Origin: Dehalococcoidia bacterium
GTDB taxonomy: Bacteria > Chloroflexota > Dehalococcoidia > DSTF01 > JACRBR01
Length of the DNA stretch: 47,094 nt
Direction: 5' to 3'
Assembly (NCBI GenBank): GCA_041494685.1
Contig: JBGQBE010000022.1
Location: 1 to 47,094 of the forward strand
Each line of letters starts with the position of its first letter. The first letter of the stretch is position 1. The notes beneath the pieces are model-generated. The model did not search any database. It saw only the letters and a list, made by a program, of their open reading frames with translations, and had not been told where the DNA came from. The translations under genes and the position numbers were made by a program. Below are positions 20,931 through 24,652 of the stretch, piece by piece.

Positions 20931-21146
20931 CTACGCCTTCACGCTCGCCTCGTAGCCCTCTTCTTCGATCGCGGCGATGATCGCCTGCACGTCGAACTCG
21001 CCATCGACGCGCGCGGCGTTCTCGGCCAGCGACACCTGCGCGTCCTTCACGCCGGCCACGCCCTTCACGGCCTCGGTGACATGGTGCACGCAGTTGTCGC
21101 AGGTCATCCCCTTGACGGCGAATGTGATGGTCTTGCCGGTGGTCAT
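20931..21146 (-). CDS. copZ: Copper chaperone (HMA domain)
   Basis: GMTCDNC; AGGAGG RBS before ATG 21146. Confidence 0.88.
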   Translation of the reverse strand: MTTGKTITFAVKGMTCDNCVHHVTEAVKGVAGVKDAQVSLAENAARVDGEFDVQAIIAAIEEEGYEASVKA

Positions 21147-21189
21147 CTCGATCCTCCTGTGCATGCCCTCGCGGGCTCCCCCTCGCCGG

Positions 21190-21456
21190 CTACTTGCCGG
21201 CCATCTCATACAGTTCGCTCAGCTCCGCCAGCACGGCGTCCTCGCGGCCGTCGCGGATGCCTTCGACCACGCAGGTGTGCAGGTGCCCGCCGAGCATGAT
21301 GCTGTCCATCTTCTCGATGGCGCGGCGCACGGCATACGTCTGCTTCAGGATGTCGACGCAGTACTTGTCCTGCTCCACCATGCGGCGGATCCCGGCCAGG
21401 TGCCCGTCGATGAAGTTGAGCCGCTTCAGGACGTCGGTTTTCGTATCTGGCAGCAT
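21190..21456 (-). CDS. csoR: Copper-sensing repressor, CsoR/RcnR family
   Basis: KRLNFIDGHLAGIRRMVEQDKYCVDILKQ...GHLHTCV with C-H-C ligands; GGAGG RBS before ATG 21456. Confidence 0.9.
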   Translation of the reverse strand: MLPDTKTDVLKRLNFIDGHLAGIRRMVEQDKYCVDILKQTYAVRRAIEKMDSIMLGGHLHTCVVEGIRDGREDAVLAELSELYEMAGK

Positions 21457-21467
21457 AGCATTCCTCC

Positions 21468-21489
21468 CATACCCCCTGGGTAGGGGTGT
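21468..21489 (-). promoter_or_regulatory. CsoR operator-like site
   Basis: Minus strand ACACCCCTACCCAGGGGGTATG, a C-tract/G-tract pseudo-palindrome directly upstream of the csoR RBS, like known CsoR operators. Confidence 0.75.
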
Positions 21490-21645
21490 CCGCGCAGGAT
21501 ACGATCCCCTGCCCGTCGCGAGCAAGTGCTGATCGGCCCTCGACTAACTACAACCCCTCCGTGCCTCTGTGTTGAGTCCCCGATCACCTCCAACCTCCGG
21601 ACCACGTTTCCCGCTTCCAACCGCATCCGCTACCATATGCCCGAT

Positions 21646-21702
21646 ATGGCAGATCGGACCGGCAGCAGCGTAGTAGTCGTATCGGTACGGCAGGCCCGTT
21701 GA
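21646..21702 (+). CDS. valS leader (attenuator) peptide MADRTGSSVVVVSVRQAR
   Basis: ATG GCA GAT CGG ACC GGC AGC AGC GTA GTA GTC GTA TCG GTA CGG CAG GCC CGT TGA: five Val in six codons, four of them GTA. An alternative in-frame ATG lies at 21637 and a TACCAT -10-like hexamer at 21631-21636. Confidence 0.8.
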   Translation: MADRTGSSVVVVSVRQAR

Positions 21703-21760
21703 CCGTCGGCTGAACCACGGCCGGCACAGCGGGCCCCTCGTGCGTGCGAGGGGCTTCTTC
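21693..21760 (+). terminator. Attenuator with mutually exclusive antiterminator and terminator
   Basis: Terminator GCCCCTCG-TGCGTG-CGAGGGGC-TTCTTC (21733-21760). Antiterminator GGCCCGTTG (21693-21701) pairs with CAGCGGGCC (21727-21735) and overlaps the terminator 5' arm. Confidence 0.75.
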
Positions 21761-21802
21761 GTGCCCGCGACGGCCTGTAGCACCCGGTGATGGAGCGAGC
21801 GC

Positions 21803-24652
21803 ATGACGCAGCAGCCTGAACCCGCGAATACTCCCCCGATGGCGAAGTCGTACGACCCGCGCGCCACCGAGGACCGCGTCTACCACTTCTGGGAGTCGCG
21901 CGGCTACTTCAAGCCCCGCATCGACCCCGCGAAGCAGCCGTTCTGCATCATCATGCCGCCGCCCAACGTCACAGGTGAGCTGCACATCGGCCACGCGCTC
22001 ACCGACACCGTGGAGGACATCCTGGTCCGCTGGCACCGCATGCTCGGCGACCCCACGCTCTGGGTGCCCGGCGTCGACCACGCCGGCATCGCGACGCAGA
22101 ACGTCGTCGAGAAGCAGCTGGCGAAGGAGGGACTCACGCGCCACGACCTGGGCCGCGACGAGTTCGAGAAGCGCGTCTGGCAGTGGGTCGGCCGCTACCG
22201 CCCGATCATCGGCAACCAGCACCGCCGCCTCGGCGCGTCCGCCGACTGGTCGCACGAAGTCTTCACGCTCGACGACGGCCCCCAGGCCGCCGTCCGCACG
22301 ACGTTCAAGAAGCTCTACGACGACGGCCTGGTCTACCGCGGCGAGCGCATGATCAACTGGTGCCCGCGCTGCCGCACCGCCCTCAGCGACCTCGAGGTCG
22401 AGCACGAGGACGAGCTGCGCAGCCTCTGGCACATCCGCTACCCCATCGTCACCGGACACGACGCCGAGGGCCGCCCGCAGACCGGCGACGAGCACATGAC
22501 CGTCGCCACTACGCGGCCCGAGACGTTCGTCGGCGACGTCGCCGTCGCCGTCAATCCGGACGACCCGCGCTACAAGGACAACGTCGGCCGCACCGTGCTG
22601 CTGCCCGTCATCCTGCGCGAGATCCCGATCGTCGCCGACGAGGCGGCCGAGGTGGAGTTCGGCACCGGCACCCTGAAGGTGACGCCCGGCCACGACCCGA
22701 CCGACTTCGAGATCGCGCAGCGCGCCGGCCTGCCGATCCTCAACGTCATGAACCTGGACGCCACGCTCAACAAGGAGGCCGGCCCCTACGCCGGCATGGA
22801 CCGCTACGAGGCGCGCGAGGTGATCCTGCGCGACCTCGAAGAGCTCGGCTACCTGGCGAAGACCGAACCGCACGAGATGCAGATCGGCGTCTGCACGCGC
22901 TGCCACACCGTCGTCGAGCCGCTCATGTCGTGGCAGTGGTTCGTGAACCAGCGCGCCCTCGCGCAGCCCGGCATCGACGCGGTGAAGGCGGGCCGCATCA
23001 AGTTCGTGCCGGACCGCTTCGAGCGCGTCTACCTGAACTGGATGGAGAACATCCGCGACTGGTGCGTCTCCCGCCAGCTCTGGTGGGGCCACCGCATCCC
23101 CGTCTGGTACAGCGCCGACGACGACGGCGACAAGATTATCGTCACCCTGCGCGACCCCGCCGCCGGCGTCACCGCCGAGCCGCGCGTCGGCACCTACAAC
23201 GAGCTGCGCGCGCAGGGCGTCACGCACGACGAGATCCTGCGCCACGGCACCTGGTCCGGCGTCGAGGCCACGCCCATCGTCGGCATCGAGACGCCGGAGC
23301 GCTCGCCGAAGGGTGGCGGCCACCTGCTGCAGGAGAACGACGTGCTCGACACGTGGTTCTCGTCCGGCCTCTGGCCGTTCTCGACGCTCGGCTGGCCCGC
23401 GCGGACCGAGGAGCTGACGTACTGGTACCCCACCTCCGTCATGGAGACGGGCTACGACATCATCTTCCTCTGGGTCGCCCGGATGATCATGCTCGGCCTC
23501 TACAACATGGACGAGATCCCGTACTCCGTCGTCTACCTGCACGGCACCGTCCGCAACGAGCACGGCCAGCGCATGAGCAAGTCGCTCGGCACCGGCGTTG
23601 ACCCGCTGGAGGTCGTCGAGAAGTTCGGCGCCGACGCGCTGCGCTACACGCTGATCACGTCCAGCGGCCCCGGCAACGACATGCGCCTCGCCGAGCAGCG
23701 CGTCGAGGCCGGCCGCAACTTCGCCAACAAGCTGTGGAACGCCGCCCGCTTCGTCATCTCGATGATCGGCAACGGAACCGTGCGGCTGCCCGACGCGATG
23801 CCCGGCCCGGACGCTCCGCTCGAGGACCGCTGGATCATGTCGCGCGTCGAGGGCCTCGCCCGCGGCGTCGACGACCTCATGCGGCGCTTCGAGTTGGGCG
23901 AGGCCGCGCGCCAGGTGTACGAGTTCGTCTGGGGCGAGTTCGCCGACTGGTACATCGAGATCGCCAAGGTGCGCGTGCGCGGCGAGAACCAGCGCGGCCC
24001 GTCGCCGCTGCCCGTGCTCGCGTATGTGCTGGACCGCTGCCTCCGCATGCTCCACCCGGTGATGCCGTTCGTCACGGAGGAGATCTGGCAGGCGCTGTCG
24101 CAGAAGATCGACGGCGTCGGCGAGGAGGCGCTGATCGTCGCCGCCTTCCCGCGCGGCGAAAGCGGCTACGCCGACGCCGCGGCGGAGCGCGATATGACGC
24201 TGCTGATCGAGATCGTCCGCGCCATCCGCAACATCCGCGCCGAGAAGAAAGTCGAGCCAGCGCGGCTGATCGAGGCCTACGTCGCAGGCGGCGCGGACGC
24301 GCCCATGCTGGAGGCGGGCCGCGCCTACATCGAGATCCTCGCGCGCGCCAAGCCCGTGCGCATCATCGCCGACGCCGCCGACGCGCCGCGCGACCAGGTC
24401 GCCACCGCCGTGCTGGAAGGCGCGACGGTCGTCGTGCCGCTCGCCGGCCTCTTCGACGTCGCGGCGGAGCGCGCTCGCCTCGAAAAGCAGATCGCCGACG
24501 CCGAGGCCGAGGCCGGCCGCATCGCGGAGAAGCTGGCGAACGAAGGGTTTCGCGCGAAGGCCCCCGCGAAGATCATCGCGACGGAAGAGGAGCGCCTCGC
24601 CGCAACGCGCGCCCGCATCGAAGGCCTCCGCGCCGGCCTGGCGGATCTGTAG
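21803..24652 (+). CDS. valS: Valine--tRNA ligase
   Basis: PPPNVTGELHIGHA, DHAGIATQ, DWCVSRQLWWGHRIP, DVLDTWFSS, RMSKS, C-terminal coiled coil. Confidence 0.97.
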   Translation: MTQQPEPANTPPMAKSYDPRATEDRVYHFWESRGYFKPRIDPAKQPFCIIMPPPNVTGELHIGHALTDTVEDILVRWHRMLGDPTLWVPGVDHAGIATQNVVEKQLAKEGLTRHDLGRDEFEKRVWQWVGRYRPIIGNQHRRLGASADWSHEVFTLDDGPQAAVRTTFKKLYDDGLVYRGERMINWCPRCRTALSDLEVEHEDELRSLWHIRYPIVTGHDAEGRPQTGDEHMTVATTRPETFVGDVAVAVNPDDPRYKDNVGRTVLLPVILREIPIVADEAAEVEFGTGTLKVTPGHDPTDFEIAQRAGLPILNVMNLDATLNKEAGPYAGMDRYEAREVILRDLEELGYLAKTEPHEMQIGVCTRCHTVVEPLMSWQWFVNQRALAQPGIDAVKAGRIKFVPDRFERVYLNWMENIRDWCVSRQLWWGHRIPVWYSADDDGDKIIVTLRDPAAGVTAEPRVGTYNELRAQGVTHDEILRHGTWSGVEATPIVGIETPERSPKGGGHLLQENDVLDTWFSSGLWPFSTLGWPARTEELTYWYPTSVMETGYDIIFLWVARMIMLGLYNMDEIPYSVVYLHGTVRNEHGQRMSKSLGTGVDPLEVVEKFGADALRYTLITSSGPGNDMRLAEQRVEAGRNFANKLWNAARFVISMIGNGTVRLPDAMPGPDAPLEDRWIMSRVEGLARGVDDLMRRFELGEAARQVYEFVWGEFADWYIEIAKVRVRGENQRGPSPLPVLAYVLDRCLRMLHPVMPFVTEEIWQALSQKIDGVGEEALIVAAFPRGESGYADAAAERDMTLLIEIVRAIRNIRAEKKVEPARLIEAYVAGGADAPMLEAGRAYIEILARAKPVRIIADAADAPRDQVATAVLEGATVVVPLAGLFDVAAERARLEKQIADAEAEAGRIAEKLANEGFRAKAPAKIIATEEERLAATRARIEGLRAGLADL

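Follow-up and report, generated by a model that had tools for sequence, protein, structure and literature searches.

We report a candidate attenuator in a 47,094-nucleotide (nt) stretch of DNA from a Dehalococcoidia bacterium (assembly GCA_041494685.1, contig JBGQBE010000022.1, positions 1 to 47,094; hereafter the window), where the valine--tRNA ligase gene valS is preceded by a short open reading frame (ORF) rich in valine codons and by RNA helices that exclude one another. We propose that this element is a classical ribosome-mediated leader-peptide transcription attenuator which couples the transcription of valS to the supply of charged tRNA-Val, and we put the probability of this reading at about 0.8. 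The mechanism itself is textbook and not new; the gene and the bacterial group are. A first-pass annotation of the window had suggested that ribosomes stalling on Val codons allow an antiterminator to form and thereby induce valS. Conservation of the element, covariation of its helices, the lack of a T-box and folds computed with ribosome-covered segments masked all support that suggestion.

A leader ORF with rare valine codons lies upstream of valS

The valS gene (21803-24652, plus strand; ATG at 21803, GGAG at 21792-21795) exceeds the cut-offs of the NCBIfam valine--tRNA ligase models (1125 bits vs 704). It is the single valS detected in the 3.29-Mb genome, which has a G+C content of 68%. 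The leader ORF lies on the same strand, 100 nt 5' of the valS start, at 21646-21702. It comprises 18 codons followed by a TGA stop (21700-21702), reads MADRTGSSVVVVSVRQAR and has homologous ORFs in relatives. Coordinates and sequence agree with the first-pass annotation, which had described an 18-codon ORF with five Val codons, four of them GTA. The codons that we regard as regulatory span 21670-21687 on the plus strand and run GTA GTA GTC GTA (21670-21681), TCG, GTA (21685-21687). GTA had been called rare in the surrounding genes, and it is rare genome-wide: 1930 long ORFs of the same genome contain 63939 Val codons, only 2905 of which (4.5%) are GTA. From this frequency the binomial chance of meeting at least four GTA among five Val codons is about 2e-5. 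The assembly carries one tRNA-Val gene each for the anticodons TAC, GAC and CAC, and GTA is readable only by tRNA-Val(UAC), which is encoded by a single gene.

The element is a family-wide motif tied to valS

Sixteen published copies of the element went into a covariance model, R1. R1 has one match in the genome of the window (E = 2.5e-15) and matches 29 of the 36 family genomes, or 28 of 35 when the unpublished G021 is left aside. All 27 aligned copies adjoin valS, at distances of 16 to ~235 nt 5' of the ValS N-terminus, and G012 has a further strong match, ahead of a second valS 5' end. The short ORFs of the family end in motifs such as VVVPVRQAR or VVVPVRAAR, after which a GC-rich hairpin and a T-tract follow. 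A conserved Val-rich upstream ORF in relatives, which had been named in the first-pass annotation as a check on its reading, is present across the family. The leader peptides vary in their N-terminal ~8 residues and keep frame, Val run and stop; leader length ranges from 17 to 21 codons and is exactly 18 in 16 of 25 copies.

Seven family genomes have no R1 match. Two of these (G001 and G019) showed no valS in the assembly. Three belong to one genus, in which the L019 copy, though diverged, combines a TACAAT box with a terminator and an ORF that contains three GTA codons. Nothing recognizable was found upstream of valS in L008 and L010. In ten relatives without a strong match to R1, Rfam likewise gave no match 5' of valS; no element was recognized in seven of them, and the other three have only a diverged form. 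In the rest of the order, weak R1 matches directly 5' of valS occur only in family f4 (both of its two genomes). The order-wide tally is 38 of 93 genomes, G021 included; apart from this tally, the 29 of 36 above and the pair of matches on G021:C22 described below, G021 enters none of the counts. Two further weak matches were rejected as spurious: one (G051:C89) lies inside a coding sequence and the other (G047:C202) is an ordinary terminator at the 3' end of a gene. As judged from these comparisons, the element is a family-wide motif with looser versions in other Dehalococcoidia families.

Three observations on individual family members stand apart from this tally. G012 has two valS 5' ends (C359:1484-1587 and C443:172-275) with the Val leaders MRIDAASQPVVVSVDEAR and MRIDFASQAVVVSVAGAR; this metagenome-assembled genome (MAG) is 6% contaminated, and the two ends probably represent two strains binned together. 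On G021:C22, two strong R1 matches lie ~860 nt apart on the same strand. An AT-rich insert between attenuator and valS is kept in G050, G013 and G014 (L132 ~1700-1790, and the corresponding position in L134 and L121). It holds TTGAC, then TTATT and T-runs, and could allow the attenuator to be bypassed, either as a second promoter or as a binding site.

Codon choice within the run is conserved as well. Across the leaders of 25 copies there are 113 Val codons, 94 of them GTA. Alignment columns 7-15, which contain the Val run and belong to none of the three helices tested below, have GTA in 19, 21 and 25 of the 27 copies. Another 16 codons occur in these columns, of which seven are the synonymous GTG or GTC. 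Conservation of GTA accompanied by synonymous changes is not expected of an untranslated RNA element.

Translation of the leader could also be used in another way. It might respond to the overall speed of translation, or to how much of the rare tRNA-Val(UAC) is present or how it is modified, with the GUA run serving as a generic slow patch. The overwhelming use of rare GTA rather than mixed Val codons (94/113) and the single tRNA-Val(TAC) gene are what such a device would show, and sequence alone does not decide which signal slows the ribosome. However, the element occurs only before valS, with one match per genome and 27 of 27 copies adjoining that gene; a genome-wide scan gave no second convincing leaderless, run-rich ORF with a terminator; and seven of the sixteen run codons that are not GTA still encode Val (GTG or GTC). 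The use of rare cognate codons is, moreover, known from classical attenuators: the E. coli leu leader uses the rare cognate codon CUA. We regard a generic slow patch as unlikely and prefer a leader that reads the charging of tRNA-Val.

A promoter-like box directly precedes the leader start codon

The hexamer TACCAT (21631-21636, plus strand), which resembles a -10 promoter element, ends 9 nt before the leader ATG at 21646, and no Shine-Dalgarno sequence lies between the two. This arrangement is conserved in relatives. A TANNNT box stands 4-9 nt (mode 7) ahead of an in-frame start codon in 25 of the 27 family copies, 11 of which have exactly TACCAT; of the two remaining copies, one is interrupted by a contig end and one is without a clear box. 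The start codons of the 25 leaders are ATG (19), GTG (5) and TTG (1), and none of these leaders has a Shine-Dalgarno sequence between box and start. Since transcription beginning at the start codon or immediately ahead of it would give a spacing of 4-9 nt, we infer a leaderless mRNA: transcription would start at about 21643-21646 and the leader ORF would be leaderless or almost so. The conserved spacing thereby strengthens the near-leaderless translation proposed in the first-pass annotation.

Two details of the box deserve mention. A second ATG (21637-21639), in frame with the leader ORF, abuts TACCAT; if the box is a -10 element, this ATG cannot be in the transcript. The motif ATCCGNTANNAT surrounding the box is kept in many copies, and it may be more than a -10 element.

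Predicted antiterminator and terminator helices exclude one another

All helix counts refer to a model-fitted alignment of 27 published copies (A3); such an alignment leans towards the structure of its model, which tells against our reading to that extent. The antiterminator (2:3; 21693-21735, plus strand, -30.6 kcal/mol) consists of an outer stem, in which GGCCCGTTG (21693-21701) pairs with CAGCGGGCC (21727-21735), and an inner stem, in which GTCGGCTG (21705-21712) pairs with CGGCCGGC (21718-21725). The leader stop codon (21700-21702) sits in its 5' arm. The antiterminator is 87% paired overall and 83% paired in the outer helix, and eight of its pairs are altered on both sides; columns 30 and 83, for instance, form CG 16 times, UA six times and UG four times. 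None of 500 shuffles matched the observed pairing values, and pairing was at its maximum at slide 0.

The putative intrinsic terminator (3:4; 21733-21763, plus strand, -17.4 kcal/mol) has a stem of 8-9 bp (21733-21741/21746-21754) followed by the U-tract TTCTTCGTG (21755-21763). In its core, GCCCCTCG (21733-21740) pairs with CGAGGGGC (21747-21754), and the stem is 99.5% paired across the copies. Bases 21733-21735 (columns 84-86) are common to antiterminator and terminator, so that the two cannot form in full together. As only these 3 nt are shared, the switch would act on the base of the terminator stem.

A third helix, the weak 1:2 hairpin (21683-21690 with 21696-21705, plus strand), pairs CGGUACGG with CCGU..ACCG at -7.7 kcal/mol. 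Among its alignment cells 80.6% are paired, and it has one clearly covarying pair, columns 24 and 30, which form GC in 15, AU in 7 and GU in 3 copies. Column 30 thus covaries both with column 24 (1:2) and with column 83 (2:3). The hairpin may be a pause hairpin that synchronizes ribosome and polymerase, or an anti-antiterminator.

The same helix layout appeared when copies were folded one by one. The pairings drawn in the first-pass annotation (21693-21701/21727-21735, the inner stem and the terminator stem) are all present in the predicted folds, and the stems covary in relatives, which that annotation had named as a further check. Its statement that antiterminator and terminator overlap holds in that the two are mutually exclusive, with the qualification that the overlap is confined to 21733-21735 and is small.

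Masking by a ribosome is predicted to switch the terminator

We computed, for 17 published copies, the Boltzmann probability (P) of the three bottom pairs of the terminator in an RNA truncated after the terminator stem, with the segment covered by a ribosome masked. With the ribosome at the first Val codon, P was at most 0.23 in 11 of the 17 copies, about 0.5 in two and at least 0.88 in four. With the ribosome at the stop codon, P was between 0.59 and 0.98 in all 17. At the locus in the window the two values were 0.07 (stalled at the first Val codon) and 0.88 (stop codon). Folding with and without the ribosome-covered segment, as the first-pass annotation had proposed, is hence predicted to switch the terminator in most relatives (11/17).

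The picture changed when the stall was placed at the last Val codon, a position within segment 1. In 14 of 17 copies P then reached about 0.95 or higher, the exceptions (0.36, 0.06 and 0.05) being three copies whose runs end earlier. Because a stall at the last Val codon favors the terminator, the first three or four Val codons would be the regulatory ones. In free RNA, P was at least 0.87 in 10 copies and below 0.4 in seven, including 0.39 at the locus in the window.

A model for the attenuation of valS

From the anatomy and the predicted folds we infer a sequence of events in which the transcription start, the translation of the ORF, stalling, the efficiency of termination and the physiological response are all conjectural. 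A search for RNA sequencing runs containing this DNA returned none. Transcription would start a few bases past TACCAT, placing the leader ORF at the 5' end of the RNA, where it would be translated without a Shine-Dalgarno sequence. When Val-tRNA (the UAC isoacceptor) is plentiful, the ribosome would reach the TGA at 21700-21702 and cover the 5' arm of the antiterminator (21693-21712). With this arm covered, the full terminator (21733-21754 and the U-tract) could form and transcription would end before valS. When Val-tRNA is scarce, the ribosome would stall at the first GUA/GUC codons (21670-21681) and cover segment 1 (21683-21690), leaving segment 2 free. Free segment 2 would then pair with 21718-21735 and take 21733-21735 from the base of the terminator, beside the U-tract, so that polymerase could read through into valS.

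Observations that weigh against attenuation, and a constitutive hairpin

Several observations weigh against this model. Regarding the family counts, the genomes are kin, so the counts overstate independence. The A/T/A change at columns 24, 30 and 83 is found in four copies only, at least three of which come from one genus. The overlap between antiterminator and terminator is small, at 3 nt. The 1:2 hairpin (-7.7 kcal/mol) is too weak to keep segment 2 from pairing in 2:3 (-30.6 kcal/mol), so untranslated RNA is not predicted to terminate reliably. Four of the 17 copies (L012-L015) show no switch in the masked folds, with P at least 0.88 in all states, and in two more (L005 and L020, about 0.5) the switch is partial. 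At the locus in the window the conformers of the stalled state are ~1.5 kcal/mol apart, as derived from P = 0.07.

Region 21631-21810 does not stand out in folding energy (z = -0.52), with 57 of 200 shuffles folding as well or better, and the minimum-energy fold, computed without constraints, has the full terminator next to a shortened 2:3 helix. RNAalifold, run on a plain MAFFT alignment (A1), recovers the terminator and a local stem of three pairs and no long-range antiterminator. It missed the antiterminator because the 3' arm of this helix is misaligned in A1; we therefore set the structure by hand and realigned the copies with the covariance model. A consensus promoter scan flagged no promoter and recognized no -35 element in the valS upstream region, and was thus silent at TACCAT. 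The U-tract is short and interrupted, and a consensus scan flagged a terminator neither at the locus nor, in two relatives, at the homologous hairpin. The likely reason is that a G-U extension of the stem consumes the short U-tract.

Hairpins of this kind may nonetheless terminate transcription. In the genome of the window, similar hairpins with a short T-tract are ~5.7-fold enriched 3' of long ORFs (41 of 159, in 4.5% of bases), and such enrichment after gene ends is consistent with terminators, weak as the U-tract is. This bears on the idea that the small ORF is without regulatory role, hairpin and U-tract being a 5' stem-loop or a stability element that acts constitutively. A weak U-tract that a consensus scan leaves unflagged would suit a constitutive stem-loop, as would L154, a valS upstream region of another family in which a promoter leads directly to a similar hairpin and no Val ORF is present. 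The enrichment, by contrast, is as expected of terminators, and a constitutive hairpin leaves unexplained the GTA run, the stop codon in a covarying helix, the sharing of 3 nt and the state-dependent folds. We give it hardly any credence, and retain the attenuator.

T-boxes occur elsewhere in the genome and the class

Synthetase genes can also be controlled by RNA that binds tRNA directly. An Rfam search of 21000-22300 returned only three chance-level matches, the best at E = 1.9, and no T-box (RF00230) match at E <=10. The covariance-model search in this respect agrees with the first-pass annotation, which had seen no T-box consensus. The same genome served as a positive control, with five T-box matches elsewhere, all on minus strands (C7:37444-37662, C49:9299-9552, C27:20939-21169, C57:13134-13403 and C78:21-235), one of them above the Rfam cut-off. 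Four precede ilvB, ileS, thrS and a trpB-like gene, and the fifth lies at a contig edge. With T-boxes at these genes and a Val leader at valS, the organism would use both devices.

The genome-wide scan mentioned above, which looked for leaderless amino-acid-run ORFs followed by a terminator, yielded 21 distinct candidates, among which only the valS leader was convincing. A Thr-rich ORF on C4, 25 nt 5' of a strong hairpin, was rejected as no threonine-related gene lies downstream, and an ORF on C11 that contains Trp was set aside since it seemed to lie antisense to a gene, not upstream of one.

We extended the comparison to the class by sampling 53 other Dehalococcoidia families, which gave 60 valS upstream regions; 59 of these, from 52 families, were usable. 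A leaderless Val-run ORF with a terminator was found in three of these: L146 (MNGRASEVVVTS), L170 (MKHYLTVLAVPVVVT) and L178 (MSNLQRLTVVVP). Three others have a T-box at valS, namely L147, L148 and L151 (families f8, f9 and f12; 100.7, 79.5 and 81.3 bits), and no T-box was found in the other regions of the sample. In the remaining 53 regions simple screens recognized nothing. Two Dehalococcoidia MAG records show the same design: L091, which reads MHTPVVVVPGGG and has four GTA codons, and L077, which reads MKSNNSILVVVINT and comes from a low-GC genome where promoter and terminator are both canonical.

The L154 region (family f15, with a valS N-terminus 75% identical) has a TTGACC-18 nt-TACAAT promoter, then the terminator-like hairpin GCCCCGAAGCCCGGTTCGGGGCC, then TTTCATTCC, and no Val ORF. 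This leader may have degenerated, or may be under a different control.

The presence of T-boxes raises the question of whether the valS element itself is such a switch. The ORF might be untranslated and the RNA bound by tRNA-Val, as in a T-box with a GUA specifier, or by ValRS, as in the E. coli thrS operator. GUA is indeed complementary to the UAC anticodon, and T-boxes stand at valS in the families of L147, L148 and L151 and at four identifiable genes of this genome. However, T-box and Rfam searches gave nothing beyond the three chance-level matches, and the T-box motif GGUGGUACC, seen in L147 and L151, is absent from the valS upstream region. The fixed distance from box to start, the maintained frame, the 18-codon length and the stop codon in the antiterminator arm are none of them needed by an untranslated RNA, and the GUA run lies outside all three tested helices. 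We judge an RNA-only switch very improbable, and the ribosome-mediated attenuator remains our preferred reading.

Taking the families together, we offer a broader and more tentative idea, which we hold at somewhat below even odds. Across Dehalococcoidia, leaderless Val attenuation could be ancient and widely distributed as an alternative to the T-box at valS, with the devices replacing one another between families. It would form a self-contained module of ~120 nt in which the 5' end of the mRNA is the ribosome entry site, an 18-codon ruler sets the timing, and only rare GUA, and with it one minor tRNA-Val isoacceptor, is read.

A metal-sensing repressor gene diverges from valS

The gene next to valS on the other side of the element (21190-21456, minus strand) is divergent from it and encodes a CsoR/RcnR-type repressor. 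As this gene runs the opposite way, the 345-nt gap would be a divergent promoter region. The product belongs to the CsoR/RcnR family of metal-sensing repressors; its top NCBIfam match is RicR, under the cut-off of that model. The near-palindrome TACCCCCTGGGTAGGGGTGT (21470-21489) lies just past the start of the gene and resembles CsoR-type operators. Given this operator-like sequence, the gene may be autoregulated.

Comparison with known systems

Our literature searches found no description of leader-peptide attenuation of valS and no account of leader-peptide attenuation in Chloroflexota; a study of the attenuation of amino acid and aminoacyl-tRNA operons (Lopatovskaya et al., 2010) may bear on priority. 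In the portions of these papers that were available, Chloroflexi are treated as too sparsely sampled (PMC4833913) and ValS is mentioned only as erythromycin-induced (PMC4974804). The available portion of Seliverstov et al., 2005 (PMC1262725) predicts classical attenuators before leuS and trpS in Streptomyces and cites pheST as a gamma-proteobacterial example of attenuation; 'valS' and 'valyl' do not occur in the text of that paper.

If our reading is true, valS joins pheST under leader-peptide attenuation, with the predicted Streptomyces leuS and trpS attenuators as further members. Synthetase genes are usually described as T-box controlled in Gram-positive-type lineages, or as subject to a few special mechanisms in E. 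coli. A T-box in some families and a ribosome-sensed switch in their sister families, both at valS, would be a natural case of one RNA sensor replacing another. The motif is also usable to annotate valS leaders, and the small ORF that goes unannotated, in uncultured Dehalococcoidia.

The E. coli pheST attenuator consists of the pheM leader peptide with its cognate codons and a terminator/antiterminator switch. The valS element is like it in placing a leader peptide and a switch before a synthetase gene, an arrangement by which the level of the enzyme would track the charging of its own tRNA. It is unlike pheST in reading Val and not Phe, in belonging to another gene and phylum, in being apparently leaderless and in its 3-nt overlap, and the two have no sequence relationship. 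Runs of Val codons that control an intrinsic terminator are found in the enterobacterial leaders of ilvBN (ivbL) and ilvGMEDA (ilvL). Unlike the valS leader, these regulate biosynthetic operons, are multivalent (Val and Leu, or Ile, Leu and Val) and are led by a Shine-Dalgarno sequence; ilvB in the genome of the window is instead preceded by a T-box.

The Streptomyces leuS and trpS attenuators are likewise predictions for synthetase genes in a GC-rich Gram-positive lineage that uses T-boxes for other synthetases (ileS), as far as the available portion of PMC1262725 goes, and they differ from the valS element in synthetase and phylum. In mycobacteria, leaderless polycysteine short ORFs (sORFs) are described as cysteine-responsive attenuators in the available portion of 10.1101/834739. 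Like them, the valS leader would be a regulatory sORF that opens a leaderless mRNA and carries cognate codons in a run; amino acid, target genes and phylum differ. The valS T-box (RF00230) has the same target and the same logic, with valS going up when tRNA-Val is uncharged. The two differ in the sensor, which in the T-box is the direct binding of tRNA and in the element described here would be a stalled ribosome.

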